In this document: positions 8,770 through 59,293 of the stretch, in pieces | Position numbering within the stretch: the stretch's first letter is position 1 | Layout of the letters: each line of letters opens with the position of its first letter | Assembly: GCA_016212185.1 (NCBI GenBank) | Contig: JACRGX010000002.1 | Span: forward strand, 3,760-67,759 | Reading direction: 5' to 3' | Length of the DNA stretch: 64,000 nt | From: Nitrospirota bacterium | GTDB taxonomy: Bacteria; Nitrospirota; Thermodesulfovibrionia; UBA6902; DSMQ01 | Position numbers and translations under genes: made by a program | The notes under the pieces: generated by a model | The model's input: the letters and a program-made list of their open reading frames with translations, nothing else | What the model was told of the DNA's origin: nothing | Databases searched by the model: none

Positions 8770-10866
8770 ATGGATACTATGTTTTTAAACAGTGCAATTT
8801 ATATTGCCGTAAATCTTCTGCTCTTCTCCTCATGGTATCTTCTCCTTTACCCCGTCAGAAAGAAAACCTTACCTGAACTTTCTAACGGAGGATGTCAACT
8901 ACCGTTCATTGACGGAGTTTTAGGTGCTTTTGTTCTGAGCCTGACCCAGATAATAGTTACAGAAATGATTCTGGGCGTGGTATTTAAGAGGCTCTATGCA
9001 ATGCCTCTTTTTTATTTGAATGTTTTTATATCGCTTATTGTCTTAATACTGGCGGTGCACTCAGGCAATAATAGGTTATTAAATCCCCCCGCCCCCCCTT
9101 TGCAAAAGGGGGGTAAAGGGGGATTTTTAGATAAAAATATTTTTAAAAATTTTCTATTAGAGTTTAGGAATGAGGCAAATCTGTTCTCCAATATAATAAA
9201 AAAAGATAAGATATTACTCTGCCTGTTTACAATTTTTTTAATTTACCTCTGTTACATGATTTTCATAGGCTGGCTTTTTCCGTCATATACGTGGGATGCG
9301 CTGTGGTATCACCTTCCCATAGCAGGCTATATCATGCAAGGCGGAGCTATTCAGGAGAATCCGGCGCCCTCTTTTATTGATCTTTTTATAAATATTTTTC
9401 CAAAAAACATGGAGCTATTTTTTCTCTGGAATATTATTTTCTTAAAAAGTGATATTATTGCGGATTTGAGCCAGCTCCTGTTTACCATAGCAGGGGTTTT
9501 CACTGTATACAGCATTGCCGTAAAAATGAGAATAAAGGAGGAACATGCCGTATATTCCGCCCTGCTGTTTTTTTTCACTCCCATAGTAATCCTGCAGTCT
9601 ACGACAAATTATATAGATATTGCCGTGTCGGTGTTATTCCTGATTGCTGTCAATTTCCTGATGTATGACGGCGCTGAAAATTATGCAAAAAACGAATCTG
9701 TGCTGAACCGCCTCAAGGAAAATAAAATTCCAGTGCTTCTTTCAGGACTTACGACCGGGATTTTATTAGGCTCAAAAGGTTCGGGCCCGATATTTGCGCT
9801 TGTGCTTGTAGTTATATTAACACTTAAAAATGTTTTAAAAAATTTCAATTTTTTAAAAACTGACGCATTACGCATTACGCATCACACATTACGGTTTTAT
9901 TCACTATATTTTATACTGCCGGCCTTTTTACTTGGAGGCTACTGGTATGTGAAAAACTGGGTCTTGTACAACAATCCCGTATATCCAATAAATATAACCA
10001 TTTTCAACACAACTCTCTTTAAGGGATTATACGGCGGGATAATAGACCCCCCTCCGCAGGTTTTTAAAGGATTAACTTTGCCGGCGCAGTTGTTTTATGT
10101 ATGGCTTGAAAGGGTTGAATATTATCTATATGACTCAAGGCTTAGCGGATTTGGCCCTGTATGGTTTATTCTTTTTCTGCCGACTGTTGTATTTTCTCTT
10201 GTGTCTGCTGTAAAAAATAAAAATTACGACTTTCTGTTTGTCAGTGCAATCCTTATCATAATATTTCTTGTTTATCCGAGAAACTGGAACACAAGATATG
10301 TAATTTTTATTGTTGGATTAGGCGCTGTTTCTTTTGGCACTGCGCTTGATTATTTTTGTGTAAAAGGCAAATGGCTTAAAATCATAGCGCTTTTACTTGC
10401 TGTCTATACATTTCTTACAGCAAATTCCCCCTGCATCATGCCTTCAAAAATCAGAGAATTTGTCCGCCTGCCTGCAAAAGAACGCTCAATATCAAGACAT
10501 GCCCCGTTCAACATAGACCTGCATGCAAGGCAGGAATACGGTTGTTGGATATGGATAGGCAATAATATCGTAAGAGGAGATACGCTGGCATATACTTTTG
10601 AGCCTCTGTTTCTCTCACCGTTATGGAACAGCGCTTTTTCAAACAGAATAATTTATATCAAGTCAGAGAGTTATAACGAATGGTTGGAAAACTTAAAGAA
10701 AAATAATGTAACATATGTATTAATCAGACAGAATTCTGAAGAGGATAAATGGGTGGATAAGGCAAGGAAGCTTATCAGCAGATTCTGGTGGCTCAGCGCT
10801 CCCTCTGAAAAATTCAAGGTCGTTTATTCGGACGAAAATTATAAAATAATGAAATTTATCAAGTGA
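8770..10866 (+). CDS. Large polytopic membrane protein, possible lipid-linked-sugar glycosyltransferase (ArnT/PMT-like fold?)
   Basis: About 12 predicted TM helices. Contains in-frame repeat insertions at 9092..9114 and 9865..9896. Functional assignment is weak. Confidence 0.35.
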   Translation: MDTMFLNSAIYIAVNLLLFSSWYLLLYPVRKKTLPELSNGGCQLPFIDGVLGAFVLSLTQIIVTEMILGVVFKRLYAMPLFYLNVFISLIVLILAVHSGNNRLLNPPAPPLQKGGKGGFLDKNIFKNFLLEFRNEANLFSNIIKKDKILLCLFTIFLIYLCYMIFIGWLFPSYTWDALWYHLPIAGYIMQGGAIQENPAPSFIDLFINIFPKNMELFFLWNIIFLKSDIIADLSQLLFTIAGVFTVYSIAVKMRIKEEHAVYSALLFFFTPIVILQSTTNYIDIAVSVLFLIAVNFLMYDGAENYAKNESVLNRLKENKIPVLLSGLTTGILLGSKGSGPIFALVLVVILTLKNVLKNFNFLKTDALRITHHTLRFYSLYFILPAFLLGGYWYVKNWVLYNNPVYPINITIFNTTLFKGLYGGIIDPPPQVFKGLTLPAQLFYVWLERVEYYLYDSRLSGFGPVWFILFLPTVVFSLVSAVKNKNYDFLFVSAILIIIFLVYPRNWNTRYVIFIVGLGAVSFGTALDYFCVKGKWLKIIALLLAVYTFLTANSPCIMPSKIREFVRLPAKERSISRHAPFNIDLHARQEYGCWIWIGNNIVRGDTLAYTFEPLFLSPLWNSAFSNRIIYIKSESYNEWLENLKKNNVTYVLIRQNSEEDKWVDKARKLISRFWWLSAPSEKFKVVYSDENYKIMKFIK

Positions 10867-16069: not shown

Positions 16070-16399
16070 ATGGCTCTTCAGGCCGTTTTAAAAGAAAGAG
16101 AAAAAAAACTAACGATATTAAGAAATAATGCCATGAAAGAGGCGCAAAGGCTCGCTTTCCTTTTAAGCAAGCGCTATAAGTTTGAGGCGATTTATCTTTT
16201 CGGCTCGCTTTTATCAGGAAAGTTCAGATTACATTCAGACATTGATATGGTAATAAAAGGTTTGAAAGTGGAGGATTTTTTTAAGGCGCATGCATTTTTA
16301 ATAAAAGAAAGCAGGTATAGAATTGATTTGAAGCCTTTTGAGGATCTTGAGGACAGCTTTAAGGAAAAAATTTTGCGGAAAGGATTGAAAATTGGATAA
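16070..16399 (+). CDS. Nucleotidyltransferase (MNT-type antitoxin)
   Basis: IYLFGSLLSGKFRLHSDIDMVI (GS...DxD). Confidence 0.7.
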   Translation: MALQAVLKEREKKLTILRNNAMKEAQRLAFLLSKRYKFEAIYLFGSLLSGKFRLHSDIDMVIKGLKVEDFFKAHAFLIKESRYRIDLKPFEDLEDSFKEKILRKGLKIG

Positions 16400-16874
16400 A
16401 GATATTTTAAGGGAAATCATCTCTGAAATAGAAAAAGAGCTTGAAAATATTAATGAATTCAGGAAGGAACTGATGAAAATAAAATCTGAAAATTCTATAA
16501 CATTCAGGCGTTCAATTGGTTCCATTCTGCATGATTTTTATAACTGCTGTGAAAGGGTCTTTAAAAAAACAGCGAGCGGCATTAACGGCAGTTATGAAGA
16601 TTCGGACAAATGGCATAAGTCGCTGCTGGTTAGAATGACTATCCCGATTAAAGATATAAGACCGGCAGTAATTTCCGAGGAACTTGCCGCTGAACTTGAC
16701 GAATACCTGTCTTTCAGGCATGTATTCAGAAATATCTATGGTTTTGAGCTTAAAGGCGACAGGATTAAATACCTTGCGGAAAAATTTGATAATGTTGCGG
16801 AAAGATTTATCAGTGAGATTAAAAAATTCCTTATTTTTTTAAGTAAAGAGCTGCAGGAATCAAAAGCGGATTAA
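16392..16874 (+). CDS. HEPN-like putative toxin partner of the MNT
   Basis: Overlaps the MNT stop by 8 nt. FRHVFRNIYGF is a loose match to the HEPN Rx4-6H motif. Confidence 0.4.
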   Translation: MDKDILREIISEIEKELENINEFRKELMKIKSENSITFRRSIGSILHDFYNCCERVFKKTASGINGSYEDSDKWHKSLLVRMTIPIKDIRPAVISEELAAELDEYLSFRHVFRNIYGFELKGDRIKYLAEKFDNVAERFISEIKKFLIFLSKELQESKAD

Positions 16875-16955
16875 TTATAAAATTGCCAACCCGTACAGCT
16901 TCTGTAAGTTTCTTACTTATCAGTGAATGGGGTAGAAAAAACAGCATTGTTTCGT

Positions 16956-17369
16956 CTATTTCACAAATATCTTTAAGAATTCTGCTGGAGTCATTATTTT
17001 TATCCCCACAGACGGAAAGTCTTTGTTATTTCTTGTAATGACACACTCGCATCCTTCATGAATAGCTGAAAAATATTGAATTAAATCCTCAAAGTCCTTG
17101 CCGGCGATCGACCTTGCCTGCTTTAAGATATTCTTTGTGAAAGCAATTATTCTAAAATCTTCCAATATCTGGTCTATTAACGGCTCCGCAGCCTTCACTC
17201 CCTTAAGTTTGCTTAAAATATAATAAAAGTTATTGACTGAAATTGCTGAAATACAACCTTGAATAACACCTTCCCTGCCAAGCGTCCACACCCTTGCCGA
17301 ATCCATATAAAATGGCTCCCGTTTTGTCAGAACATCCAATATTATATTTGTATCAATCAGTATCTTCAT
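16956..17369 (-). CDS. vapC: PIN-domain toxin
   Basis: MKILIDTNIILD N-terminus with acidic PIN residues. Confidence 0.75.
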   Translation of the reverse strand: MKILIDTNIILDVLTKREPFYMDSARVWTLGREGVIQGCISAISVNNFYYILSKLKGVKAAEPLIDQILEDFRIIAFTKNILKQARSIAGKDFEDLIQYFSAIHEGCECVITRNNKDFPSVGIKIMTPAEFLKIFVK

Positions 17370-19331: not shown

Positions 19332-19364
<33 letters not shown>

Positions 19365-19509: not shown

Positions 19510-19929
19510 CTACCCTCGTCCTTGATAATTTTGCTCTATATATTTTATATACGTTTCAATATCAGCAAGATTTCTGAGGGCATCCCTGCAAATTTTAAGA
19601 TAATCTATTTTTTCATAATCATGGGCAAGAAAATTGCGGAAAGAGGCAATTTTTGCAAACTCATATGCAAAGCTGGCAGGTATTATGTTGTTTTCCCCAA
19701 GAATATCAATTGTGTCCTGATAAGTCTGCGGCGTTCTTAAATTTCTGTCACGTATGATCAACTCTGCAAGAGTTATGCATGAATCAGCAATGAGGTAAAG
19801 ATAGTGCAGAAGCGCGCCTCTGTAAACTATGTCCTTTAAAAATTTTTCCTCGCAATCCTGCCCCATGTCTTTCAGTGTTTTATGATATTCCTTTATCTTT
19901 TCAATTTTTACCCTTAGCCGCTCTGTCAT
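19510..19929 (-). CDS. hepT: HepT (DUF86 / HEPN) toxin
   Basis: FRNFLAHDYEKIDY (RNxxxHxY). Confidence 0.8.
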   Translation of the reverse strand: MTERLRVKIEKIKEYHKTLKDMGQDCEEKFLKDIVYRGALLHYLYLIADSCITLAELIIRDRNLRTPQTYQDTIDILGENNIIPASFAYEFAKIASFRNFLAHDYEKIDYLKICRDALRNLADIETYIKYIEQNYQGRG

Positions 19930-20309
19930 ATCCCTGCAAAAACCTTTCTTTGGTATTTGAAATCCATTGCATTATGCAAAACATTTAGCTCAAAAGTCTC
20001 TCTTAGCTGAGGGTTTCTGTCGCAAACTATCTTGCCGCTTCTGACTATCTCTTCAAGAAGGATTATGTTTTTTGTCCTGTTAAGAAAAACAAGGTCCACA
20101 GCGTTGCTCTTAAGCGCCCTGCTTAATACTGCATGTAATTCCATCTCCTTGTCAAAAAAAGCGGTCTCTCTACACATATAAACTGCAATGTCTATGTCAC
20201 TGGTGGGGAATGCGTTCTCATAGGCACATGAACCAAATAGATATGCAAATTCCACATCTTCGGCATTCAGAAATATATTTTTTAGTTTTGATAAAATCTC
20301 ACTTGCCAT
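19926..20309 (-). CDS. mntA: MntA nucleotidyltransferase antitoxin
   Basis: FLFGSCAYENAFPTSDIDIAVY; overlaps hepT by 4 nt. Confidence 0.8.
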   Translation of the reverse strand: MASEILSKLKNIFLNAEDVEFAYLFGSCAYENAFPTSDIDIAVYMCRETAFFDKEMELHAVLSRALKSNAVDLVFLNRTKNIILLEEIVRSGKIVCDRNPQLRETFELNVLHNAMDFKYQRKVFAGI

Positions 20310-20395
20310 TTCAGCTTATCTTCCTTTAAGTTTATAGCAGAATTATATCATAATACCTTCAAAAATAATCAGCTTAATAATTTTAAAAAGGGGCT

Positions 20396-20440
20396 GTCCC
20401 GTCCCGATGCTTCGGGAGGGAACAGCTCCCTTGAATCATG
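20396..20440 (-). terminator. Intrinsic terminator on the minus strand (ggggctgtcccgtcccgatgcttcgggagggaacagctccc then T5) downstream of vapC
   Basis: GC hairpin followed by a T-run on the minus strand; near-identical copy at 21148..21190. Confidence 0.55.
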
Positions 20441-20479
20441 TTTAAGTGAATTTTCACATCCCTCCCTTGAAACTTCCAC

Positions 20480-20899
20480 CTACCAAATCTCAAGGTAAAA
20501 ATCTTTATATGCCTTGATTAGCTCATAATCTGCCCTGTCTGAAGTAATGACTGTGGCTCCGTGGTTTCTTGCAGTAAGCGCTATGAGGACATCAAAATGA
20601 ATATCTCTCAGTTTCCCTGGAGAAAACCCTTTATCTTTATAAATCTTTGACAATATTTCGCCGGACTCAAGCCAGTTCTTCTCTGTCGGGGTAAGTATCG
20701 GGTGATTTTTTATTAGCATTGCTACAAAATCCGATTCTTCTTCCCTAACAGCTCCCCTTGATAATTCGGATAGAACAACAGATGAATTTCTTATAAGACC
20801 CGTCACATTTTGAATGTGATCAACGTATTTATTGGTCCTTAAATGGTCTATAAATACCGAGGTGTCAAAGACGATAATCCTACCTGCCATGAGCTTCAA
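20480..20899 (-). CDS. vapC: PIN-domain toxin
   Basis: RIIVFDTSVFIDHL N-terminus (PIN). Confidence 0.75.
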   Translation of the reverse strand: MKLMAGRIIVFDTSVFIDHLRTNKYVDHIQNVTGLIRNSSVVLSELSRGAVREEESDFVAMLIKNHPILTPTEKNWLESGEILSKIYKDKGFSPGKLRDIHFDVLIALTARNHGATVITSDRADYELIKAYKDFYLEIW

Positions 20900-23625: not shown

Positions 23626-24744
23626 CTATTTCTTCTCTCTTCCTGAATATTTTGCATAGCAAATCGCCGCCGCCCTGTAAAATATATGGGCAAGTTTTGA
23701 GTATGGAAGATAAAGAAAAAGTGAAAACACAAAAACAAGGTGTATAAAATAAACCGGATACGCAAGGCCTGCCATGCCTGCAAGTCTTGTGGCCCATGAC
23801 AGGATACCGGAGGCCATGATTACTCCAATTATTGTCAGCAGAAGCCAGTCAAAATAGCTTCCAATACCTGATTTATCAACATGCTTAAACCTGTCAATAA
23901 CCATGAGCAAAACACCGATAAAAAGCCCTATCGCGCCGATTAGCCCAAAGATTTTAACAGGCGTGCCGTAACCGAATGCGAAAGGAGACTCCTTATGCAG
24001 AATATCAATATAAAGAACCCCGAAACCTGTAGCAATTGCAAGGGCCATGAAACTATAAAACACCATAAAGTGCGCTGAAAATCTGCTCCTGTCCACAACA
24101 CAGTCTTTGAATTTTTTCTGGCTCAGAATTTCTTTAGCCGTTTCAATTATGCCTGACTTCAAATCGCCCGATGTTACGCCTCCTGCCTGCTTCATGTCTT
24201 TCCAGAACTTTTTCAAGCCGAGAACGCCGACAGCAATTCCAAATAGCAGCGCGGGAGTAAAGACAAACTGAAGAAAGCGGATTGAGGCGAATTTTGAAAA
24301 TACAATCTCGCCGTCCGGTATATTAAACGTTCCCGCTGCTGAAAGTATCACTCCAAGCAGCACGGCAGGGAGAAGGAAGATAAGCCATACAAGATTCTTG
24401 TTACCAACCATTTTTGACAGAAACGCCGGTTTTGAATACATCTGAATGCCCTGCTTCCTGATTGCGCCTAAAACCTCTCCGGGTTTTGCGCCTCTCGGGC
24501 AGTATGCGGTGCAGTCGTTGCACTGATGACAGAGCCAGACATCGGGGTTGCCGATGAATTTTTCTTTCAGCCCCCACTGCGCCCAGACCATTTCTTTTCT
24601 GGGAAATGGTTTGTCATCCGGCGTCACATTGCACACAACCGTGCAAGTTGCGCACTGGAAACATTTTTTCAGGGACTCTCCGCCGCCTTCAATAACCCCT
24701 TTTACAAAATCAAGATCAGGCTTTATAACCGTTGCTGATGACAT
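23626..24744 (-). CDS. qmoC: Quinone-interacting membrane-bound oxidoreductase subunit C (HdrC-like FeS domain + haem-b membrane domain)
   Basis: CFQCATCTVVC and CHQCNDCTAYCP ferredoxin motifs followed by 5-6 TM helices. Confidence 0.8.
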   Translation of the reverse strand: MSSATVIKPDLDFVKGVIEGGGESLKKCFQCATCTVVCNVTPDDKPFPRKEMVWAQWGLKEKFIGNPDVWLCHQCNDCTAYCPRGAKPGEVLGAIRKQGIQMYSKPAFLSKMVGNKNLVWLIFLLPAVLLGVILSAAGTFNIPDGEIVFSKFASIRFLQFVFTPALLFGIAVGVLGLKKFWKDMKQAGGVTSGDLKSGIIETAKEILSQKKFKDCVVDRSRFSAHFMVFYSFMALAIATGFGVLYIDILHKESPFAFGYGTPVKIFGLIGAIGLFIGVLLMVIDRFKHVDKSGIGSYFDWLLLTIIGVIMASGILSWATRLAGMAGLAYPVYFIHLVFVFSLFLYLPYSKLAHIFYRAAAICYAKYSGREKK

Positions 24745-24772: not shown

Positions 24773-24872
24773 GATTCAAGGATTCGTGGGTTCAAGTGAT
24801 TAAAATTCATAACACATTACGAATTACGGTTTTAAAATCCTTGACTCCTTGACTCCTTGACCGCTTGAATCC
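24773..24872. repeat. GGATTCAAGG-family long imperfect palindrome between qmoB and qmoC
   Basis: Left arm gattcaaggattcgtgggttcaagtgat, right arm aatccttgactccttgactccttgaccgcttgaatcc. The loop contains the cacattacgaattacggtttt heptamer motif. Confidence 0.6.
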
Positions 24873-24878
24873 TGTTTT

Positions 24879-27104
24879 TTATAATTCCTTAAACGGATTG
24901 GGACCAATTTCTTCAACCCTCTCAACAAAGGTGTTTATCATTTCAGGGAGCTTGTCGTATTCTGATATGGAGACCTGCACAAGCTGGCATCTGTCGGATT
25001 CAAGCTGAAGCTTGTCAAGCGTCTCCTTAACCTTGCTGAAGCGGTAGTTTGCAAGCTCGCTGCCTTTTACAAAATGGCACTGATAATTTTCGCCGTACTT
25101 ACAGCCTAAAAGCATCAGTCCGTCAATTCCTTTTGAAAATGCATCGGTAACCCACACCAGATTGGTTGAACCGAGGCATCTGACAGGGATAATCCTTACC
25201 TTCGGATTTAATTTAATGCGTTTTATTGCCGCGCTGTCTAATGCAGGATAGGCGTCATTTTCGCAAGCCAGTACAATAATCCTGAACTCATCCTCATCCA
25301 CTTCTATGGACTTTATCATTGAACCGACTATATCAACGCTGAAATCCTTGAACGATACAATCCTTTCAGGGCATGCTCCCATACAGGTTCCGCAGCGCCG
25401 ACAGCGGTTGAGTCTGAAAAATGGAGTGCCTTTTTCATCTTCATCTATTGCGCCGAAAGGACACTCCTCAGTGCATCTCTTACATGACGTGCATTTTATC
25501 ATAAGAGGGTCAGGGAATGTCACATCCCATGCCCTCGGATGAACTGCCATGCCCTTTGCAACATGCTCAACGCACTGTATTGCCTTTAATGCCGCGCCTG
25601 CCGCATCCTCTGCGGCGTCAGCCATAGTCATAGGCTGTCTTACGCACCCTGCCGCATAAATGCCTGTCCTTCTCGTTTCATACTGGAAACAAATAAAACC
25701 GGAATCCGCAAACCCGTATGCGCCTTCAAGCGACGGGATTTCAGGACCCTGCCTGTAAGTGAGATTTAAGATGAAATCGGGCTTGGGCGTTGTTTCAATA
25801 TAAGCATTCTTTGCAATATCGCCTTTCTTTTGCGCCTCGGTAAGTCCGTCAAGATATTCCTGAGGGGCGCGTGTGGCAGGCACAACGCCTGTTGCAAGAA
25901 CCACAAGGTCTGCCTCAACCTTTATCTTTTCTCCGAGGAGGGTATTGTCTGCCTCAACATAAAGGTTGCCGTTTTCGGCGTCGCTTATGCCCGTTACTTC
26001 CGCCTTTGTCAATAAGACGCCCGGGTCGTTCTGCATATTTTTATAAAATATTTCTGTCTGCCCCGGTGTCCTAATATCTTTATAAAAAATCATTGCAATT
26101 GCATCGTCATTCTTCTCCCTCACATATTTTGCCTGCTTAAGCGATGCTGCACAGCAGAATGATGAGCAGTACGGAAGGTGGTTTGCGTCCCTTGAACCTG
26201 CGCACTGAATAAATGCCACCTTCTTTGCCTCTTTGCCGTCAGACGGACGGGTTATCTTTCCCTTCTTTGCCATTTCTTCCATCTGAATATTTGTAATTAC
26301 ATTAGGATTGCCGTATCCGAGATGAGTAAGTTTTGAGGCGTCATAGGGTTTCCATCCCGCAGCCATGATGACAGCGCCGACCCTCATTGTCTCGCTTGTT
26401 CCGTTGGTTCTTATAGTTACATCCAGGAGGCCAGGCTGTCCATCTGTCTTTTCTATAATTGATGATTTATATACTTTAATATTGGCGTGCGACTCCACTT
26501 CTTTCATCCTATCAAAAATCTTAGGCTCTTCAAGTTTATCAAACGGCTGCTGTCTCGGCGTTTCTTTATAAAGTTTTGCAGCCCATCCGCCAAGCTCCGC
26601 CTCTTTTTCAACAAGCACAACCTGATAACCTGCATTGGCAGCCTCAATCGCCGCAGAGAGTCCCGCACTGCCGCCGCCGATGACAAGGATCGTCTTGCTC
26701 AAATCCTGAAGTATGCTGGGCTCAGGTAGATCGCCCTTCTGCGCCTTGATTGCGCCCATTACCATATAATCATCTGCAAGACTCTGCGCATCCGTACTCA
26801 TAGGTTCGGCAGTCCAGGCAACAAACTCCCTCAGATTGACCCTTTCTGTTATTGTACCGGGGAAATCAAACTCTTCATATTTTACGCGTGGGGAGCATGC
26901 GCCGATGATAATTGTATTGGTCCCTTCTTTTATATCATTTTTGATAAGCTCCAGCCCCTCGGTACTGCATAAGACCTGATGCTCTTTTACGGCCTCTGCC
27001 GGCACCCTGCCCTTTCCAGAGGTCCTGGCCTTCAGCTTTTCTATGTTTACGGATTCTCCGATGCCACAGCCTTTACAGATATAAACGCCGATTTTTTTCT
27101 CCAT
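24879..27104 (-). CDS. qmoB: QmoB (HdrA-like flavoprotein + MvhD-like domain)
   Basis: 741 aa, FAD-binding GGGSAGLSAA, and several Cx2Cx2Cx3C clusters. Confidence 0.85.
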   Translation of the reverse strand: MEKKIGVYICKGCGIGESVNIEKLKARTSGKGRVPAEAVKEHQVLCSTEGLELIKNDIKEGTNTIIIGACSPRVKYEEFDFPGTITERVNLREFVAWTAEPMSTDAQSLADDYMVMGAIKAQKGDLPEPSILQDLSKTILVIGGGSAGLSAAIEAANAGYQVVLVEKEAELGGWAAKLYKETPRQQPFDKLEEPKIFDRMKEVESHANIKVYKSSIIEKTDGQPGLLDVTIRTNGTSETMRVGAVIMAAGWKPYDASKLTHLGYGNPNVITNIQMEEMAKKGKITRPSDGKEAKKVAFIQCAGSRDANHLPYCSSFCCAASLKQAKYVREKNDDAIAMIFYKDIRTPGQTEIFYKNMQNDPGVLLTKAEVTGISDAENGNLYVEADNTLLGEKIKVEADLVVLATGVVPATRAPQEYLDGLTEAQKKGDIAKNAYIETTPKPDFILNLTYRQGPEIPSLEGAYGFADSGFICFQYETRRTGIYAAGCVRQPMTMADAAEDAAGAALKAIQCVEHVAKGMAVHPRAWDVTFPDPLMIKCTSCKRCTEECPFGAIDEDEKGTPFFRLNRCRRCGTCMGACPERIVSFKDFSVDIVGSMIKSIEVDEDEFRIIVLACENDAYPALDSAAIKRIKLNPKVRIIPVRCLGSTNLVWVTDAFSKGIDGLMLLGCKYGENYQCHFVKGSELANYRFSKVKETLDKLQLESDRCQLVQVSISEYDKLPEMINTFVERVEEIGPNPFKEL

Positions 27105-34147: not shown

Positions 34148-34492
34148 GTGAAACTTAACGATATTGTCAATAAACTGCCTCTGAAAGTTAACTCATACAG
34201 CGACGGGCTTCAGAAAGATGTAAGCGGCGGATATTCAAGCGACCTGCTTTCAGATGTACTGGCAAACAGCAGGGAAGGTAATGTCTGGATTACACTTCAG
34301 ACTAACTTAAATATAGTTGCCGTCGCAAGCGTAAAAAACCTTGCAGGCATAATCATTGTCAGCAGTAAAAAGCCTCCGGAGGAGACACTGAAAAAAGCAG
34401 AGGAGGAAAAAATTACAATTATGACAACCTCCATGCCGGCATTTGAAACAGCAGGGAGAATTTATCAGCTTCTACAAGGAAAAAACGTTTAA
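34148..34492 (+). CDS. DRTGG-domain protein (second copy)
   Basis: GTG start with an AGGAGGTG RBS; SDLLSDVLANS...IVSSKKPPEETLKKAEE pattern. Confidence 0.55.
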   Translation: MKLNDIVNKLPLKVNSYSDGLQKDVSGGYSSDLLSDVLANSREGNVWITLQTNLNIVAVASVKNLAGIIIVSSKKPPEETLKKAEEEKITIMTTSMPAFETAGRIYQLLQGKNV

Positions 34493-34493
34493 A

Positions 34494-34576
34494 TTGTTCA
34501 AACGTTAAAATCGTTCAATTTATCTGCAATGTTCAACCATATTAAACCATTTAAACCATTTGAACATTTTGAACAG
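34494..34576. promoter_or_regulatory. GTTCAA x3 ... aaccattt x2 ... TTGAAC x2 repeat module upstream of the PHP gene
   Basis: tgttcaaacg..cgttcaattt..tgttcaacc..taaaccatttaaaccatttgaacattttgaaca. Confidence 0.4.
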
Positions 34577-34632
34577 ATTAAACTAAACGAATATTTTTAA
34601 AACTTGCAAACAGTTCACTGGAATAAAAAATC

Positions 34633-36992: not shown

Positions 36993-37114
36993 TGCGTTCA
37001 TAGCGCCTGCCTGCCGGTAGGCAGGTTCATAGCGTTTATTGCGTAAAGCGTAACAGGGAAATACACATTACTCATTACGGATTACGCATAACGGTTTTTT
37101 ATAAGGGAGAACTT

Positions 37115-38423: not shown

Positions 38424-38520
38424 GGATTCAAGGGGTCAAGCGGTCAAGGATTCAAGTGATAGAAAACTACATTTTAAAAAATTGTCACTTGAACCCTGGA
38501 ATCCTGGAATCCTTGAACCC
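38424..38520. repeat. GGATTCAAGG-family palindrome between the ferredoxin and nuoF-like genes
   Basis: ggattcaaggggtcaagcggtcaaggattcaagtgat ... cacttgaaccctggaatcctggaatccttgaaccc. Confidence 0.6.
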
Positions 38521-38533: not shown

Positions 38534-40360
38534 ATGGAAAATTTTCGCGCAAATATAATGCTATGTGCAGGGACGGGCTGCGTTGCCAGCGGAACCATGA
38601 AGGTTAAGTTCGCCCTTGAGAAAGAGCTGAAGAAAACGGGGCTTGAAAACGAAATAAAAGTAGTCCTCACCGGCTGTAACGGCTACTGCGCGCAAGGTCC
38701 TGTAATGTCGGTTTATCCTGATGACATTTTTTATCAGGCAGTTAGCGTAGATGAAATACCCAAACTGGTTGAAGAACACTTCCTTAAAGGCAGGCCGTAT
38801 GAGAAGCTGATGTTCAAGGAGCCTGAAAAAAAGTCTGCTGTCCCTTTAATGAAGGACATCCCTTTCTTTAAACATCAGGTTCTAAGGGTATTAAGGAACA
38901 AAGGGCTTATTGACCCTGAAAAAATTGAAGAGTACATTGCAAGAGACGGTTATCAGGCCGCGGCTAAGGTGCTGACACAGATGACCCCTGAGGACGTAAT
39001 AAATGTGATAAAAGATTCAGGGATAAGAGGCCGGGGCGGAGCTGGATTTCCAACAGGCATGAAATGGGAATTTTGTTCAAAGGTCAGGTCTGATGTAAAG
39101 TTCATGCTCTGCAACGGTGATGAAGGCGACCCGGGCGCATTTATGGACAGGTCTGTAATGGAGGCTGACCCGCATGCTGTTATTGAAGGCATGATTATCG
39201 GCGCAAGGGCCATCGGCTCTCATAACGGCTACATCTACGTAAGAGCTGAATACCCTCTGGCTGTGAAAAGGCTTCAGCTGGCGATAGACCAATGTTATGA
39301 GGCAGGACTCCTCGGTAAAAACATCCTTGACAGCGGTTTTGATTTTGACCTTGAGATTTATCAGGGAGCCGGGGCCTTTGTCTGCGGAGAGGAAACCGCT
39401 TTGATGCGGTCCATTGAGGGCAAGCGCGGCATGCCGAGACCACGGCCGCCCTTCCCTGCCCACAAGGGATTATGGGACAAGCCGTCAGTTTTAAACAATG
39501 TTGAAACCCTTGCGCAGATTTCCCTGATAATTATGAACGGAGCAGACTGGTATAAAAGCCTCGGCACTGAAAAAAGCACCGGGACAAAGGTTTTCGCCCT
39601 TACAGGCGCAGTTAACAATATCGGGCTTATTGAAGTGCCTATGGGCACGCCGTTGAAGACCATTATTTTTGACATAGGCGGGGGTATAAAAAAGGGAAGA
39701 AAATTCAAAGCAGTCCAGATGGGAGGACCGTCAGGAGGCTGTATCCCTGAAAGTCTGATTGACATCCCGGTCACATATGAAGATGTCGTAAAGACAGGAG
39801 CCATCATGGGCTCAGGCGGCATGGTGGTAATGGACGACAACAACTGCATGGTCAGCATTGCAAAGTTCTTCCTGGAATTCACTGCGGACGAATCCTGTGG
39901 AAAGTGCGTGCCCTGCAGGGTGGGTACCAGGATACTGCTTGATATGCTCATTGACATTACAGAAGGCAGGGGAAAAGAAAGCGATATAGAAACACTTGAG
40001 GATCTCTCGCTGGATATTATCGCTGCATCGCTTTGCGGCCTCGGACAAACAGCGCCGAATCCCATCCTCACAACAATACGGTATTTTAAAGATGAATATG
40101 AATCGCATATAAAAGATAAATGGTGCAAGGCAGGTGTGTGCCGCAGTCTCTGCACATTTATGATTGATGAAAAAACCTGCACCGGATGCGGCGCATGCAT
40201 GAGGGCCTGTCCGGCTAAGGCAATTACAGGGGAAAAGAAAAAACCTCACAATATTATGCAGGAGGTCTGCGTCCACTGCAGGAACTGTTATGAAACCTGT
40301 AAGTTTAATTCTATCCGAATACTGCCGGCAGCAGCGAGAGAAACAGTGAAGAAAGAGTAA
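38534..40360 (+). CDS. NuoF / HndC-like NAD(P)H-binding flavoprotein with an N-terminal [2Fe-2S] domain and C-terminal 2x[4Fe-4S]
   Basis: GRGGAGFPTGMKWEF, ESCGKCVPCR, CTGCGACMRACP...CVHCRNCYETC. Confidence 0.85.
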   Translation: MENFRANIMLCAGTGCVASGTMKVKFALEKELKKTGLENEIKVVLTGCNGYCAQGPVMSVYPDDIFYQAVSVDEIPKLVEEHFLKGRPYEKLMFKEPEKKSAVPLMKDIPFFKHQVLRVLRNKGLIDPEKIEEYIARDGYQAAAKVLTQMTPEDVINVIKDSGIRGRGGAGFPTGMKWEFCSKVRSDVKFMLCNGDEGDPGAFMDRSVMEADPHAVIEGMIIGARAIGSHNGYIYVRAEYPLAVKRLQLAIDQCYEAGLLGKNILDSGFDFDLEIYQGAGAFVCGEETALMRSIEGKRGMPRPRPPFPAHKGLWDKPSVLNNVETLAQISLIIMNGADWYKSLGTEKSTGTKVFALTGAVNNIGLIEVPMGTPLKTIIFDIGGGIKKGRKFKAVQMGGPSGGCIPESLIDIPVTYEDVVKTGAIMGSGGMVVMDDNNCMVSIAKFFLEFTADESCGKCVPCRVGTRILLDMLIDITEGRGKESDIETLEDLSLDIIAASLCGLGQTAPNPILTTIRYFKDEYESHIKDKWCKAGVCRSLCTFMIDEKTCTGCGACMRACPAKAITGEKKKPHNIMQEVCVHCRNCYETCKFNSIRILPAAARETVKKE

Positions 40361-40362
40361 AA

Positions 40363-40510
40363 TCGGGTTAGAGGATTCAAGGATTCGAGGGTTCAAGTAA
40401 ACTATGGAATTCGTTATAAGTTATAAGTTATAAGTTATAAGTTATAGGATAACGAATAACGTAGCGCTAAAATTCACTTGAATCCTTGACCGCTTGACCC
40501 CTTGAATCCT
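40363..40510. repeat. GGATTCAAGG-family palindrome with an internal (GTTATAA)5 heptamer tract; about 92% identical, in reverse orientation, to 56043..56185
   Basis: gggttagaggattcaaggattcgagggttcaagt ... (gttataa)x4gttatagg ... acttgaatccttgaccgcttgaccccttgaatcc. Confidence 0.7.
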
Positions 40511-40525
40511 TTGAAAGGTTTTATT

Positions 40526-43075
40526 ATGGTAACTTTAACAATTAACGGCAAACAAATTGAAGCTGTAGAAGGCACGACCATTCTTGAGGCTGCGCTGAAA
40601 AACGGCATCAGGATTCCAAACCTCTGCTATGACAGAAGGCTCAAGCCTTATGGCGCATGCAGGTTGTGCGTTGTTGAAGTGGAAGGTCAGCCGAGGCTTT
40701 TTGCTTCATGCTCAAGCCCGGTCACTGCAGGCATGGCGGTAAAAACTGATACGCCGAAACTGAGGAAGGCGCGCCAGACAGTGCTTGAGCTCATGCTGGT
40801 GCACCATCCTCTGGACTGCCCGCTATGCGACAAGGCCGGCGAGTGCGACCTTCAGGACTTTGCATACGACTACGGTAAACCTGAAGCGCGCTTTATCAGA
40901 CACCGGAAAGAAGCGCCTCCTGATGTAAGGGGTCCACTGGTAGAGCTGACTGCAAACAGATGCATTTTATGCGGCAAATGCGTGCGGCTGTGCGATGAGC
41001 ATCAGGGCCGGGGAGCATTAGGGTTTATCGGCAGGGGATTTTCTACAGTGGTCCAGCCTGCTTTCGGCGAAATACTTGAATGCGATTACTGCGGGCAGTG
41101 CATAGATGCATGTCCTACCGGCGCGCTTCTCAGCAAACCGTATAAATTCAAGGCAAGGCCCTGGTTCCTTGATGAAAAAGATACCATATGCCCGTTCTGC
41201 GGCTGCGGCTGCACCCTGACTCTCGGAATTCGGGATGGAGAAATATTAAGGTCACGGGGAGTAGAAGGCAGGGGACAAAGCAAAGGCAATCTCTGCGGCA
41301 GGGGCAGATTCGGCTTTGATTACATTTACAGCAAAAACCGCCTGAAGACCCCGCTGATTAGAATAAAGGATAAAAAAGAGGGTTCAAGGATTCAAGGATT
41401 CAAGGATTCAAGTGAAAAACTCGACCCCTCGACCCCTCGACCCCTCGACCCCTTTCCAAGTTTTAGAGAGGCTTCCTGGACTGAGGCGTTGAATTACATC
41501 AGCGAAAACCTCCGGTCTATTTCAGAACAACACGGGCCGTCTTCCATAGGCGCCATAGGCTCGCACAGATGCGCTAATGAAGATAATCATATGCTGCAAA
41601 AATTCATGAAGCACATTATCGGCTCAAACAATATTGACTCATCGGCAGCCTTTGGCTATGCAGTTGTTGAAAAGGCATGGGAAACGGCCTTCGGTCAAAA
41701 ATGCCACAGCATTAACCTTAAATCCCCGCTTGATAAAGAAGCCATTCTGATAGTTGAATCCGACCTGACTGTTACGCATCCGGTATTCGGGCTGAATATC
41801 TTACAGGCCAAAAGGGAAGGTTCAAAGCTTATTGTTGCCGACAGTAGGGAAACAAAACTTACAAGACACAGCTCGCAGAAGCTCAGGATAAAACCCGGGA
41901 CAGGCATAGCCCTGCTTAACGGAATAATGAAAATTATAATGGACAAAGAGCTCTTTGATAAAGAAAAGGTATCGGGTATTGCAGGTTTCTCAGCGCTTCA
42001 GACATTATTAGATGATTACACCACTGAGAAGGTCTGCAGGATTACCGGATTAACAGAAGCAGAGCTGACAGCAGCCTCTGAAACATATGCCCGCGCCAAA
42101 AGCAGAATGATTTCCCTCACAATAAGCGCTTCGGAGAACACCAAAGGCATGGATACCGTTCTTGCCGCTGCCAATCTTATCTTACTGCTTGGCGACAGCC
42201 ACAGCTCGCTTCAAATACCTGCGGAATATTCAAACAGCTTCGGCGCATATCACCTTTTGAACGGTTTAAACAATTCAAGCACAGGAAAAGATATTTTTGA
42301 AATGCTTTATAACCCGGACTCTATCAGGGCATTATATATCATGGGAGAAGACCCTGCGCTCAACTTCCCGGACACCTCAAGTATAATAAATAAGTTGAAG
42401 TCTTTGGATTTTCTGATTGTTCAGGACATAGCGCTTACTGAAACCGCAAAATTAGCGCATGTAGTCCTGCCTGCGTCAAGCTGGGCTGAAAAAGACGGAA
42501 CATTCACCAATGCCGAAGGGCTTAACCAGCGGCTGCAAAAAGTAATTGACACGGCAGAACAGCCTCTTCCTGACTGGAGGATATTGAAGGACCTTGCTTT
42601 ATGCATGGGGAAAGACACAGGCATAAGAAACATTGAAGATATTACCAAAGAAATAACTTCATCCTTCAACCCTCAACCTTCAACCCTCAACCCTCAACCT
42701 TGTTTTAGTCCGGTTAGTTACGCCCCTGCCGAAAAATCAGACAGTTATCCCATATCCCTGATACTCAGGGATATTCTTCAGCACTCAGGGAGCATGTCTG
42801 CACGGTCAAAATCACTGGACCTGGTGGCATCCGAGGCAATTCTTGAGATAAATGAAGAAGATGCCAAAAAACTCGGCATCACAGACAACAGTCATGTAAA
42901 AGTAAGTTCAAGCCGTACCAGTGTTTATCTTAAGGCAATGGTTTCCGACGAAATCCCGGAAGGCGCAGTGTTTGTCTCTGCACATTTTCCCCATGCAAAA
43001 ATAAACACCCTGACCTCTCCCTTCTTAAACGGCATGCCCTCTATCACCATGGTAAATATAGAAGCCGTGAAGTAA
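40526..43075 (+). CDS. NuoG / FdhA-like subunit (2Fe-2S, 4Fe-4S, MopB and molybdopterin-dinucleotide-binding domains) lacking the Cys/Sec Mo ligand
   Basis: The N-terminal FeS domains and MopB CPFCGCGCTL cluster are intact. Where FdhA has [18 protein letters not shown]...GSGAMTNS this protein reads NNIDSSAAFGYAVVEKAWETAFG. Start reassigned to the ATG at 40526 (GAAAGG RBS), outside the upstream hairpin. Confidence 0.75.
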   Translation: MVTLTINGKQIEAVEGTTILEAALKNGIRIPNLCYDRRLKPYGACRLCVVEVEGQPRLFASCSSPVTAGMAVKTDTPKLRKARQTVLELMLVHHPLDCPLCDKAGECDLQDFAYDYGKPEARFIRHRKEAPPDVRGPLVELTANRCILCGKCVRLCDEHQGRGALGFIGRGFSTVVQPAFGEILECDYCGQCIDACPTGALLSKPYKFKARPWFLDEKDTICPFCGCGCTLTLGIRDGEILRSRGVEGRGQSKGNLCGRGRFGFDYIYSKNRLKTPLIRIKDKKEGSRIQGFKDSSEKLDPSTPRPLDPFPSFREASWTEALNYISENLRSISEQHGPSSIGAIGSHRCANEDNHMLQKFMKHIIGSNNIDSSAAFGYAVVEKAWETAFGQKCHSINLKSPLDKEAILIVESDLTVTHPVFGLNILQAKREGSKLIVADSRETKLTRHSSQKLRIKPGTGIALLNGIMKIIMDKELFDKEKVSGIAGFSALQTLLDDYTTEKVCRITGLTEAELTAASETYARAKSRMISLTISASENTKGMDTVLAAANLILLLGDSHSSLQIPAEYSNSFGAYHLLNGLNNSSTGKDIFEMLYNPDSIRALYIMGEDPALNFPDTSSIINKLKSLDFLIVQDIALTETAKLAHVVLPASSWAEKDGTFTNAEGLNQRLQKVIDTAEQPLPDWRILKDLALCMGKDTGIRNIEDITKEITSSFNPQPSTLNPQPCFSPVSYAPAEKSDSYPISLILRDILQHSGSMSARSKSLDLVASEAILEINEEDAKKLGITDNSHVKVSSSRTSVYLKAMVSDEIPEGAVFVSAHFPHAKINTLTSPFLNGMPSITMVNIEAVK
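41380..41453 (+). repeat. In-frame tandem nonamer insert (GGATTCAAG)3-(CTCGACCCC)4 within the NuoG/FdhA-like CDS
   Basis: Encodes GSRIQGFKDSSEKLDPSTPRPLDP. A near-identical copy lies in the paralog at 55112..55184. Confidence 0.8.
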
Positions 43076-43903: not shown

Positions 43904-44110
43904 GAGAGGGAGATAAAAAACTGTTCAACAGCCTTAAGCAGGATTTCAGTTTTGTAAAATGGATTGGGAACTATCCCGGCATATAGGAATAAAAGCCAAG
44001 CAGACAGGCTCTTAACTTTCAGCTTTTAATTCTTAACTGTCTTTTCCCCTTTACTACTTGCTACTCTCTACTTTTTTTCACCCATCACGCGTTACGTATC
44101 TTTTTTTTCT

Positions 44111-44146
44111 TAATTCTTTAACTCTTAACTCCCAACTTTTAACTTT
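44111..44146. repeat. Heptamer tandem tract (TCTTAAC / GTTAAGA)n at the 3' end of the BNR gene
   Basis: taattctttaactcttaactcccaacttttaac; related tract at 53262..53292. Confidence 0.5.
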
Positions 44147-53248: not shown

Positions 53249-53269
53249 AATTAAGGAAATTCTTAACTC

Positions 53270-56035
53270 TTAACTTTTAACTCTTAACTTTTCTATCTTC
53301 ACCGCACATACCTTCAGCTCAGGTATCTTACACACAGGGTCAAGGGCGGTATTTGTAAGGACATTGGCTGCTGCCTCCCTGTAGTGGAATGGTATAAACA
53401 CCATTCCCTTTACAGGTTTTTCTGAAATCTGCACCTTGATTTCTATCTCCCCCCTCCTTGAAGATACCTTTACCGCCTGCCCTTCGGTAATGCCGAGCCT
53501 GCCGGCATCCTCAGGGTTCAGTTCAACATATGCCTCAGGGGCAACAGCATTTAATGCATCTACCCTTCTCGTCATTGAACCGGTGTGATAATGAAAAAGC
53601 TGCCTTCCCGTAGAAAGCAGAAACGGATACTCTTCGTCAGGAAGTTCCTGTGAACGCCTGTATTCTACCACAGTAAACACCGCTTTTCCCTTTGGGAAGC
53701 CTCCTTTAAAAAGATACGGAGTCCCGGGATGGTCCAGCGTGGGGCAGGGCCATTGAATTCCGTGTTTATCAATCCTTCCGTAAGTAATGCCTTTGACAGT
53801 CTGCCAGACGTTTCCGATTTCCTGAAAGACTTCTTCCACGAAATTATACTTCATAACAAAGTCAAGCCTTCTGCTTAACTCTGAAATTATCCATAAATCC
53901 TCTCTGGCCTCTCCGGGAGGATTTAATGCCTTCCTTACCCTTTGCACCCTTCTTTCAGTATTGGTAAAAGTCCCTTCTTTTTCCGCAAAACTCGCCGCAG
54001 GCAATACCACATCTGCAAGCGCCGCCGTCTCTGTCATAAATATATCCTGAACAACAAGGAAGTCAAGATTCTTTAATGCCTTTACCGTATGATTCATATC
54101 AGGGTCGCTCATCACAGGATTTTCACCCATAACATAAAACGCCTTCAGTCTTCCGTCAAGCGCAGCACCGGTCATTTCCGTCGCAGTCATTCCGGGCTTG
54201 TCTGAAAGCTTTGCGTTCCAGGCCTCTTCAAACTTGGTCCTGACGGCCGGCATATCAACCCTCTGATAGCCTGTATAGAGATTAGGAATGCACCCCATGT
54301 CCGTAGCTCCCTGTACATTATTCTGCCCCCTGAGTGGGTTGACGCCGGTGCTTTCCATGCCGAGATTTCCTGTCATAAGGGCCAGATTTGCAATTGCATA
54401 GACATTCTCAGTGCCGTGTGAATGCTGTGTTACGCCCATAGTGTAATATATGGCAGGATACTGCGCCCTGCCGTACAGCAATGCGGCGTCAATTATTTTT
54501 TGCTTTGGAACTCCTGTAATCTTTTCGGCATATTCAGGCGTATATTTGCTGAGGCTTTCTTTAAATTCACTAAATCCCTCTGTACGAACGAGTATAAACA
54601 CCCTGTCAATCAGTCCCTCTTTAAGAAGCACATGCATCATAGAATTCAGCAGCACTACATCTGTGCCTGATTTATGCTGAATCCATACATCTGCAAACCT
54701 TACAATATCAATCCTCCTCGGGTCGGCGACAATAATCTTTGCGCCGTTTCTCACTGCCTTTTTCATCTTAAGCCCGATAATAGGATGGGTTTCAGTAGTA
54801 TTAGAGCCGATTATAAAAATAACATCATTGTTTTCAATCTCAGGAATGGAGTTTGTCATAGCTCCTGAGCCGAAGACTGTAGCCAGACCGGCCACCGTTG
54901 CGCTGTGTCAATACCTTGCGCAGTGGTCTACATTGTTCGTGCTGAGGCCTGCCCTGATAAATTTCTGGAACAGATAGTTCTCTTCATTTGTGCATCTTGC
55001 AGATGAAAGCCCTCCTATTGCATCAGGACCGTGCTTTTCTTTTACTGCCTTTAATTTTTCTGCAATATAATCAAGCGCCTCATCCCAGGAAGCCTCTCTG
55101 AAACTTGAAAAGGGGTCGAGGGGTCGAGGGGTTGAGGGGTCGAGTTTTTCACTTGAATCCTTGAATCCTTGAATCCTTGAACCCTCTTTTTTATCCTTTA
55201 TTCTGATAAGCGGTTTTGTGAGCCTGTCACCGCTTCCCACAAACTGATACCCGAACCTTCCCTTGGAGCACAGCCATCCTTCATTTATAGTGTCTTCCCT
55301 TGATGTAATCCGCACAATCTCATTCTTCCTGACGTGAAGCGTCAGACTGCATCCGCACCCGCAGTACGGACAGGTTGTATCAATCTCTTTTATGTCCTTC
55401 TGCCTTCCCTTAAGTTCCCACATCTTGCCTGTCAGCGCTCCGGTCGGGCAAACTGCAACACACTGCCCGCAGAACTCGCACATAAGGTCTTTCTCAAAAG
55501 GCGTGCATATCTTTGAACTGAATCCCCTGTATCCAAAATCTATGGCTGCAACCCCCTCAATCTCATCGCAAGCCTTCACACACCTGCCGCACATTATGCA
55601 CTTCTCAAGGTCTCTTTCAATAAAGGGGTTGCCGTCTCTCTTTTTGTAGATTCTTCTTTCCCCTTCAAACCTGTTTTCCCTGATACCGTAAAAATAAGCA
55701 AGCTCCTGAAGCATGCAGTCCCCTGCCTTTTCGCATACCATACAGTCATTGGGGTGGTCTGAGAGGATTAACTCAAGAATAGTCTTTCTCAATCCCTCAA
55801 GATTGGGGCTTGTTGTAGTCACCTCCATGCCCTCGCTTACAGGGGTAGTGCATGACGTTACAGGTCTTGCCATGCCTTTAATCTCCACAAGGCAAAGCCT
55901 GCACCCCCCGAAGGCCGTCAGCTTGGGATGATGACAGAGCGCCGGGATGGAAATATCAATTTTTTTTGCCGCAGAAAGGATATTAGTCCCTGCCGGAACC
56001 GTCACCTTTCTGCCGTCTATCGTTAAAGTTACCAT
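53270..56035 (-). CDS. fdhA: Formate dehydrogenase alpha subunit (FdhA/FdsA type) with in-frame TGA = selenocysteine at 54908..54910
   Basis: ORF-track pieces 54908..56059 and 53270..54895 join across one TGA to read ...[30 protein letters not shown]..., matching the E. coli FdhF Sec site CARVUHGPSVAGL. N-terminal 2Fe-2S/4Fe-4S domains plus the C-terminal Mo-bisPGD domain. Start at ATG 56035. Confidence 0.8.
55112..55184 (-). repeat. In-frame (GGATTCAAG)3-(CTCGACCCC)4 insert in fdhA, paralog of 41380..41453
   Basis: Encodes GSRIQGFKDSSEKLDPSTPRPLDP; nucleotide sequence is near-identical to the copy in the other operon. Confidence 0.8.
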
Positions 56036-56042: not shown

Positions 56043-56185
56043 CCTTTCAAAGGGTTCAAGGGGTCAAGCGGTCAAGGATTCAAGTGATTTTTAGCTCTAA
56101 GTTATTCGTTATCCTAATAACTAATAACTTATAACGAATTTTATAGTTTACTCGCACCCTCGAATCCTTGAATCCTCTAACCCTA
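56043..56185. repeat. GGATTCAAGG-family palindrome between fdhA and the nuoF-like gene (reverse-complement copy of 40363..40510)
   Basis: agggttcaaggggtcaagcggtcaaggattcaagtgat ... heptamer tract ... cgcaccctcgaatccttgaatcctctaaccct. Confidence 0.7.
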
Positions 56186-59289: not shown

Positions 59290-59293
59290 AAAT

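Follow-up and report, generated by a model that had tools for sequence, protein, structure and literature searches.

Octamer-repeat hairpins in redox operons of a Nitrospirota bacterium: a probable selfish element family with apparent patch copying between paralogous operons

REP/BIME, ERIC and Correia elements can stabilize the mRNA upstream of them, serve as RNase III cleavage sites or give rise to promoters, and among palindromes of the enterobacterial type one spacer can hold different families in related species. Also known are ectopic gene conversion between paralogues and template switching stimulated by palindromes. Rickettsia palindromic elements (RPE) were reportedly described by Ogata et al. 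in 2000 as 'selfish DNA in protein-coding genes'. The intervening sequences (IVS) of Coxiella and Leptospira 23S rRNA have terminal inverted repeats that form a stem cut by RNase III, and a role in mobility was at one time suggested for the open reading frame (ORF) of the IVS (PMC4990558). Heptamer direct repeats are represented by the STRR sequences of cyanobacteria and the TAACTGA repeats of Beggiatoaceae (PMC4679880). In the current study we analyzed a 64-kb stretch of DNA from a Nitrospirota bacterium (the window), in which six copies of a palindrome family built on GGATTCAAGG are found, four in intergenic spacers (A–D) and two within coding sequences (E and F). These elements resemble REP/BIME and Correia elements, RPE and rRNA IVS but lack the defining properties of each of these families. 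What sets them apart is stems made of short tandem repeats, exchange at fixed sites, apparent patch copying between paralogues of 54–61% identity, and an association with PF05635. We consider it moderately probable that they form a REP/MITE/IVS-like selfish hairpin family, some of whose copies were transferred by conversion of patches centred on the element.

A first-pass annotation of this DNA had counted four palindromes, all intergenic. These four are real and their coordinates were confirmed (Table 1), but the count was incomplete, as E and F, inside the two fdhA-like genes, had been overlooked. With one mismatch allowed, GGATTCAAGG occurs 36 times in the window compared with 5.9 ± 2.7 times in shuffled sequences, and a 20-mer from one arm, CAAGCGGTCAAGGAKTCAAG, occurs 12 times with up to three mismatches where 0.01 is expected. 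Both arms consist of 8-nt units in tandem, (GGATTCAA)n in one and (CTTGAAYC)n in the opposite one. They start with GGRTTCAAG, are 22–41 nt long and are 73–77% complementary to each other. The inner arm boundaries read ...AAGTGA / TCACTTGA..., while the outer ends, AAAGG.../...CCTTT, prolong the palindrome. Heptamer tracts in the loops, which had been noted earlier, were found as GTTATAA ×4.9 in C (40413–40446), CTAATAA ×3.7 in D and CATTACG/AATTACG in A; a GTTATAA palindrome is nested in the loops of C and D, as the CATTACG units are in the loop of A. Calculated folding energies range from −24 to −55 kcal/mol, and each copy folds better than shuffled sequence (−30 to −55 kcal/mol, z −3.2 to −7.0). 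A–D each stop shortly before the ribosome-binding site (RBS) of the following gene.

The likeness to REP/BIME, ERIC and Neisseria Correia elements thus lies in short, imperfect, multi-copy palindromes co-transcribed in intercistronic spacers. In contrast to REP/BIME, the stems in the window are 8-nt tandem arrays, one copy is translated and fuller copies carry a PF05635 ORF; the arms have no GT[AG]G-type head, and a scan of window ORFs yielded no Y1 (RAYT) transposase. In a comparison with MITEs, inverted arms are present and the ends of A–F show no evident direct target-site duplication. No transposase-encoding parent was found, the longer copies with the same ends encoding PF05635 instead. 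With STRR and TAACTGA repeats the family shares abundant 7–8-nt tandem units beside start codons and occasionally within ORFs. Those, however, are direct repeats with little predicted structure, whereas here two complementary arrays make a long hairpin.

Two of the operons that contain these elements, operon 1 with C and E and operon 2 with D and F, have an identical gene order and lie 13 kb apart in inverted orientation. When they were aligned and scanned in 60-nt windows, identity was 50–65% throughout except for two peaks, at 40338–40520 and 41353–41470. C and D are 92.6% identical over 135 aligned nt, with one additional 13-nt indel in the heptamer tract, and E and F are 97.5% identical over 118 nt. 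By comparison, the NuoF paralogues share 57% of amino acids and 61% of nucleotides (40% at third codon positions), and the N-terminal halves of FdhA outside the insert share 45% and 54%, respectively. Overall, the flanks are 54–61% identical in nucleotide sequence and 38–43% identical at third positions. The near-identity of C and D and the greater conservation of the elements over their flanking genes, both claimed in the first-pass annotation, are therefore borne out. Its statement that C and D lie in opposite orientation is correct for their coordinates, since the operons are inverted, but relative to transcription the two have the same orientation.

Table 1. Coordinates of the hairpin elements, their host and neighbouring genes, and the patches of high identity in the window
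Feature	Position	Strand	Comment
qmoC	23626-24744	-	Pfam
Element A	24773..24872		qmoB/qmoC spacer; genes on - strand
Element A, 5' arm	24773-24799		GATTCAAG GATTCGTG GGTTCAAG TGA
Element A, 3' arm	24838-24872		(TCCTTGAC)x3 CGCTTGAATCC
qmoB	24879-27104	-	Pfam
Element B	38424..38520		Spacer between gene for 127-aa thioredoxin-like 2Fe-2S protein and nuoF-like 1; genes on + strand
Element B, arms	38424-38459 and 38485-38520		Upstream A7 run = T7 on antisense strand
nuoF-like 1	38534-40360	+	Pfam
Putative converted patch 1	40335..40556	+	Last nuoF-like 1 codons, element C, RBS, to about codon 8 of fdhA-like 1
Element C	40373..40509 (within 40363-40510)		nuoF-like 1 / fdhA/nuoG-like 1 spacer
Element C, arms	40373-40400 and 40474-40509
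fdhA/nuoG-like 1	40526..43075	+	849 aa; carries E
Putative converted patch around E	~41361-41478	+
Element E	41380..41452	+	In frame within fdhA/nuoG-like 1
fdhA 2	53270..56035	-	NuoG-type N-terminus fused to molybdopterin formate dehydrogenase; carries F
Element F	55112..55184	-	In frame within selenocysteine (Sec)-fdhA 2, same codon as E
Element D	56052..56175 (within 56043-56185)		nuoF-like 2 / Sec-fdhA 2 spacer; genes on - strand
Element D, arms	56052-56087 and 56151-56175		Putative donor-side counterpart of C
nuoF-like 2	56187-57968	-	Pfam

The two paralogues have separate orthologue clades, at 65–89% identity, and these indicate where the patches came from. All 118 FdhA1-clade homologues, none above 72% identity, have a PLIR–SWDEAL loop of 8 amino acids with no insert, and in the operon-1 orthologue L007 the 50-nt spacer between nuoF and fdhA is free of the element. 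The loop is expanded in 104 of the 118 FdhA2-clade homologues; orthologues at 75–81% identity carry the same octamer insert, which was confirmed on DNA for L008 and L009, so that F is common to these two. The residues that surround the insert in paralogue 1, IKDKK...FPSFREASW, are of the paralogue-2 type: IKDKK...PFSxFREASW is typical of the FdhA2 clade, whereas the FdhA1 clade has R-KNGE-LVPASW. The start of the protein shows the same pattern. MVTLTI is found in 22 of 120 FdhA2-clade proteins, the closest ones included, whereas the FdhA1 clade starts with MIELTI and has MVTLTI only in the window's own protein.

Because operon-1 orthologues are without the elements and the patches bear operon-2 characters, we conclude from these comparisons that two patches of ∼220 nt and ∼120 nt, with a hairpin at the centre of each, were copied from operon 2 to operon 1 long after the paralogues had diverged. 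F is the probable donor of E. The intergenic nuoF/fdhA element itself appears to be recent, since it is missing from L008 (13-nt spacer) and L009 (38-nt spacer) while D is present in the close relative L011, which is 94.9% identical in nucleotide sequence. An ancient conserved element was rejected as an explanation, as operon-1 orthologues have neither copy. Recent copying, and not selection acting between old paralogues, would then account for the two pairs that seem 'super-conserved'. The copying would have been non-reciprocal, with the Sec-fdhA operon as donor and the paralogous position in operon 1 as recipient; hairpin-stimulated gene conversion or template switching is a likely route, possibly anchored in short conserved motifs, namely the codons for PLIR and for SWDEAL and the start MxxLTI. 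Sharply bounded, near-identical tracts in diverged paralogues, one-way transfer and co-converted donor markers are all shared with known ectopic conversion. In contrast to the usual cases, the tracts here are centred on inserted hairpins and their flanks, at 54–61% identity, are far below what recombination usually needs.

The two in-frame copies have the sequence (GGRTTCAA)x4 GTGAAAAA (CTCGACCC)x4 and are translated as EGSRIQGFKDSSEKLDPSTPRPLDP. E adds 29 amino acids to the 8-residue loop as an insert that is in frame and free of stop codons. Direct reading of the sequence shows that (TTGAATCC)3 yields TGA in all frames while (CTCGACCC)n is stop-free; the ordinary reverse arm is therefore unreadable within a coding sequence, and the FdhA loop would allow only the stop-free version of the 3' arm to survive. 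The cost is that the sense hairpin of E and F is weak (−24 to −26 kcal/mol), compared with −42 to −44 kcal/mol for the antisense hairpin, in which the changes become G–U pairs. An AlphaFold model of the 849-residue protein has moderate overall confidence (mean predicted local distance difference test score 65.5), and it renders insert residues 283–309 as a coil of low confidence flanked by two confidently predicted strands. RPE are similar in that a palindrome lies in frame in an essential enzyme gene and is translated as an extra surface segment while other copies are intergenic. They are unrelated in host phylum and presumably also in sequence, and the window elements differ in being built from short tandem repeats; moreover, in the present case one codon hosts different repeat families depending on the lineage, and the insert appears to have moved between paralogues.

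The two host genes also differ in their likely function. fdhA 2 has an in-frame TGA, read as Sec, at 54908–54910 (context HCARY*HSATV), where paralogue 1 has glycine (SSAAFGYAVV). The clade of paralogue 1 is called NuoG by several sources, and judged by its sequence paralogue 1 is probably not a catalytic formate dehydrogenase. A second in-frame array was observed in fdhA/nuoG-like 1, (TCAACCC/TTCAACC)x∼6 at 42657–42701 (+), translated as SSFNPQPSTLNPQP. Its heptamer and the peptide SSFNPQPS recur in the FdhA2 orthologue L012/P0122 as part of its loop insert. AlphaFold confidence is low at residues 735–770 of the fdhA/nuoG-like 1 product.

Relatives were found to have other hairpins, or none, at the sites that the elements occupy in the window. 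Four of the five lineages examined have a hairpin of a differing repeat family in the qmoB/qmoC spacer: an octamer palindrome, GAAGTTAA/CTCAACTT, in L144, a GTTAAGA heptamer palindrome in L145 and a GGGTTTA/CCCCAAN heptamer palindrome in L146 are among them, while the spacer of L147 is just 9 nt. Between nuoF and fdhA, L011 has octamer arms around a different loop, with a nested (CCTG)2CCGG(CAGG)2 palindrome, and the 43 nt of spacer present on the L012 contig contain TTAACTC heptamers. At the corresponding junctions of L007, L008, L009 and L147 the elements are absent. The FdhA loop behaves in a similar manner. The closest relatives, with flanks 91–95% identical in nucleotide sequence, have unrelated 7/8-mer palindromes in the loop, whereas orthologues with flanks at 70–74% retain the octamer element at 89–95% identity. 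Third positions of this retained element are 70–89% identical, compared with 44–47% in the flanks.

We also examined how widely the family is distributed. A scan for the exact 20-mer, using one genome per species, matched six contigs, five of which have the same type of intergenic hairpin; these five are metagenome-assembled genomes of Thermodesulfobacteriota, Syntrophales and Nitrospirae. A degenerate pattern of three units that matches all six window copies was then found at at least 120 metagenome loci and on 11 viral contigs. Among the 125 non-array matches listed, a complementary arm lies within 800 nt downstream in 63 and upstream in one, and loop sizes among the matches listed are up to 80 nt in 31, 81–250 nt in 28 and 251–500 nt in three. 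The resolvable contexts among them comprise 17 co-directional, 10 divergent and 4 convergent gene pairs, and one copy within an ORF. Since divergent and convergent genes are included, the family is not linked to operons or to redox genes, and the specificity for redox operons suggested in the first-pass annotation does not hold.

A PF05635-like gene or fragment is present in 22 of the 120 loci listed and directly adjoins an arm in 13. The small protein was assigned to PF05635 (23S rRNA-intervening sequence protein, E = 5.9e-42) and to TIGR02436 (four helix bundle protein, E = 7.9e-42), and it has weak similarity to the Avd protein of diversity-generating retroelements (DGR). Five full-length ORF-bearing copies were inspected (L045, L093, L121, L049 and L074). 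In the typical layout the 5' arm is followed by ...GTGA, an RBS, an ORF of 123 amino acids, CACTTGA... and finally the 3' arm. Only in L049 is the ORF not enclosed on both sides, as this copy has the 3' arm and no visible octamer arm upstream of the ORF. An inverted-repeat stem around a PF05635 ORF, as in L045, L093, L121 and L074, and a sporadic, horizontal-looking distribution are the points of likeness to rRNA IVS. In contrast to these, the window copies have no ORF and lie in mRNA spacers and coding sequences, not in 23S helices 9, 25 or 45. Crude probes detected no rRNA signature in any of the fetched loci, and within the window no PF05635 gene, transposase or reverse transcriptase was found. 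Our literature search did not find PF05635 genes inside dispersed repeat hairpins described, and a search by sequence words returned unrelated papers only. The window copies would be non-autonomous members of a dispersed selfish family of hairpin repeats, whose fuller relatives, with the PF05635 gene in the loop, would have the architecture of an rRNA intervening sequence; copies would settle where they are tolerated, that is, in intercistronic spacers just upstream of an RBS and in one surface loop of FdhA.

Several other observations were made on these metagenome loci. A second small hairpin, TCTTCTCCAAnnnnnTTGGAGAAGA, stands before or after several copies (L017, L027, L036, L042 and L121). 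The loops of these copies, ∼148 nt long, keep only the first and last PF05635 codons, which suggests that the copies are internal-deletion derivatives. In L039, L083 and L118 the octamer pattern forms pure tandem arrays of great length, reaching ∼1.5 kb, which may represent a different, satellite-like phenomenon. The 11 contigs classed as viral on which the octamer pattern occurs are L133–L143.

The first-pass annotation had also raised the possibility of a selected RNA structure. Such a structure would be a cis-acting hairpin at which RNase III cutting, a block to 3' exonucleases or attenuation sets the subunit ratios QmoAB:QmoC and NuoEF:FdhA, with the high identity of the copies reflecting purifying selection. 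This explanation would fit the position of A–D just before the next RBS, the stability of the folds, the hairpins of other families at qmoB/qmoC in four of five lineages, together with those at nuoF/fdhA in L011 and the heptamers in L012, and the conservation of the in-frame copy at synonymous sites among orthologues; in addition, related copies share the architecture of rRNA IVS, whose stems are RNase III substrates (PMC4990558). However, a covariation check gave no signal: arms paired with their own partners fold no better than swapped arms (−34.0 versus −35.5 kcal/mol, n = 63). Scans of Rfam at both gathering and permissive thresholds gave no match at the elements. Polarity is also inconsistent, as each element folds better in one polarity, the sense strand for C and D and the antisense strand for the other four. 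T-runs are absent from the sense strand of A and B, and on that strand of C and D a TTT precedes the RBS; runs of T6–7 after the better-folding strand are confined to A, B, E and F, on their antisense side. Since T-runs fall only on that side, copies that terminate an operon may have been filtered out. Junctions are bare in L007, L008, L009 and L147, the family also lies between divergent and convergent genes, some copies in coding sequences are decaying (L009, z = −2.1; L012, z ∼0), and the donor-clade characters flanking the operon-1 copies point to copying and not to conservation. Together, the RNA tests favour tolerated selfish DNA, and we consider selected RNA hairpins unlikely. Intrinsic terminators were rejected, as a terminator scan lists none of the elements and the family mean is 3.4 T in 10 nt. 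A resemblance of the unit to a CsrA site, an anti-Shine-Dalgarno sequence or a tRNA T-arm was considered and dropped because a palindrome gives the same motifs both ways.

Two further explanations concern the origin of the similarity between the operons. Site-specific insertion into both paralogues, with recognition of a conserved target and no transfer between operons, would explain why the same sites have been struck repeatedly by different repeat families across lineages, and nested insertions in loops or arms (GTTATAA in C and D, (CCTG)2CCGG(CAGG)2 in L011) are consistent with it. It is inadequate because the coding flanks are shared too: the tracts of high identity extend into them and match the operon-2 clade (IKDKK / FPSFREASW and MVTLTI), and these characters are absent from flanks at other sites (L001–L005 and the metagenome copies). 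Moreover, C and D agree in unit order and in the nested loop palindrome, in both of which A and B differ, and no target-site duplication is visible, so that we regard independent insertion as highly improbable. We assign practically no chance to a plain recent duplication of the whole operon in which the elements were inherited; it would account for the same gene order in two operons inverted 13 kb apart, but the flanks would then be expected at ∼92% identity. They are 54–61% identical with saturated third positions, and the separate orthologue clades of the two paralogues do not agree with it either. The proposal of a mobile, homogenizing element, made in the first-pass annotation, is in contrast supported by the lineage-specific presence of the elements, by the metagenome loci and by patches that carry donor-clade characters.

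Several points weigh against a selfish family spread by patch conversion. Conversion of the RecA type normally depends on longer stretches of identical flanking sequence than are to be had at 55–60% identity. No significant similarity, and hence no detectable remnant, was found between the loops of A–D and the ends of the PF05635 ORF, so that it is the arms that tie the window copies to the ORF-bearing elements. F and its counterpart in L008 are 95% identical compared with 73.5% for the flanks, and 89% compared with 47% at third positions, which a neutral passenger alone does not predict. The unrelated hairpins that occupy the same intercistronic sites elsewhere would be compatible with selection for a hairpin as well as with an insertion hot spot; the fixed sites may be hot spots at which hairpins are targeted for insertion and replacement, or they may be positions under selection for having a hairpin of some kind. 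Finally, the 64-kb window is our view of the source genome and bounds both the copy number and the search for trans-acting genes. We nevertheless prefer a selfish family with element-centred conversion. The data show the anatomy of the elements, their restriction to certain lineages, the limits of the patches, the direction of transfer, the distribution of the family and its association with PF05635, while the mechanism of copying and the passenger role of the hairpins are inferred. The transcribed hairpins would be mostly tolerated passengers, which may by chance serve as sites for RNase III or exonucleases, or as terminators of antisense transcription.

Element A also contributes to a promoter-like sequence. 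A near-consensus sigma-70-type match, TTGACC-17-TATAAT (11/12), lies at 24857–24885 (+), facing antisense into qmoB; its −35 is supplied by the last unit of the 3' arm, and its −10 shares nucleotides with the stop codon of qmoB. In general, the CTTGAC units in the arms resemble a −35 element. QmoC homologues (P0242–P0360) range from 363 to 419 amino acids compared with 372 in the window, and qmoC genes may hold variable in-frame inserts too.

The window contains other repeats as well. Immediately before the first gene of operon 1, at 37006–37095, lie a small CCTGCCTGCCGGTAGGCAGG palindrome of the type nested in the L011 arm and, after it, a palindrome of heptamers, (GCGTAAA/GCGTAAC)...(CATTACT/CATTACG). 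Palindromes of 9–10-nt units, (TTGTTCAAGT)n ... (AACCATTTG)n, lie at 34483–34583 and 52581–52682, in intergenic regions beside a PHP-domain gene and the gene of a cyclic nucleotide monophosphate-binding regulator, and constitute another short-repeat hairpin family with the GTTCAA core in common. Heptamer direct-repeat arrays were found at 9863–9893, 44108–44144, 48313–48346, 53261–53292 and 62460–62490. Their units are ACGCATT, TCTTAAC (twice), AGCTGAT and AACAGTG; the AACAGTG array covers both the stop codon of dcd and the start of pyrF, and the TCTTAAC family makes hairpins at qmoB/qmoC in L145 and in L012. A palindrome of G/C runs, AAATCCCCCCGCCCCCCCTTT / AAGGGGGGTAAAGGGGGATTT, at 9081–9126 has a folding energy of −31 kcal/mol, and PPLPPFVKGGRGG-type peptides in FdhA2-clade loop inserts (e.g. 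P0128) resemble translated G/C-run repeats. The sole Rfam match in the window is a cyclic di-GMP-I riboswitch aptamer at 47640–47719 (−), with 52.4 bits against a gathering threshold of 35. A (TCTG)x8 microsatellite lies at 19332–19364. Toxin-antitoxin genes are clustered at 16070–17369, 19510–20899 and 58705–60049 and include two nucleotidyltransferase/HepT pairs, two PIN-domain genes and one AbiEi/AbiEii pair.

A broader reading, which we offer tentatively as a possibility, is that hairpins associated with PF05635 ('IVS-type') constitute a widespread selfish class of anaerobic Nitrospirota and Thermodesulfobacteriota that resides in spacers and coding loops and spreads as patches between homologous sites, by cassette-like replacement that is targeted to hairpins and involves no classical transposase. 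Such patches would spread among paralogues and possibly among orthologues of other species, and the process might involve the Avd-like four-helix-bundle protein as well as an intermediate made of RNA or cDNA.

The apparent 'ultra-conservation' at this locus, which is probably the result of recent copying centred on the elements, would mislead searches for regulatory RNAs if it were taken at face value. PF05635 proteins are common, unexplained and related to the DGR Avd protein, and their link to dispersed hairpin repeats outside rRNA bears on the nature of IVS. In most of one clade of Sec formate dehydrogenases, a core gene of energy metabolism, translated hairpin DNA is located at a single codon and is rapidly exchanged. 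We believe that the hairpins of the FdhA loop are informative on the invasion of genes by repeats and are relevant to annotation and strain typing in sulfate-reducing Nitrospirota.

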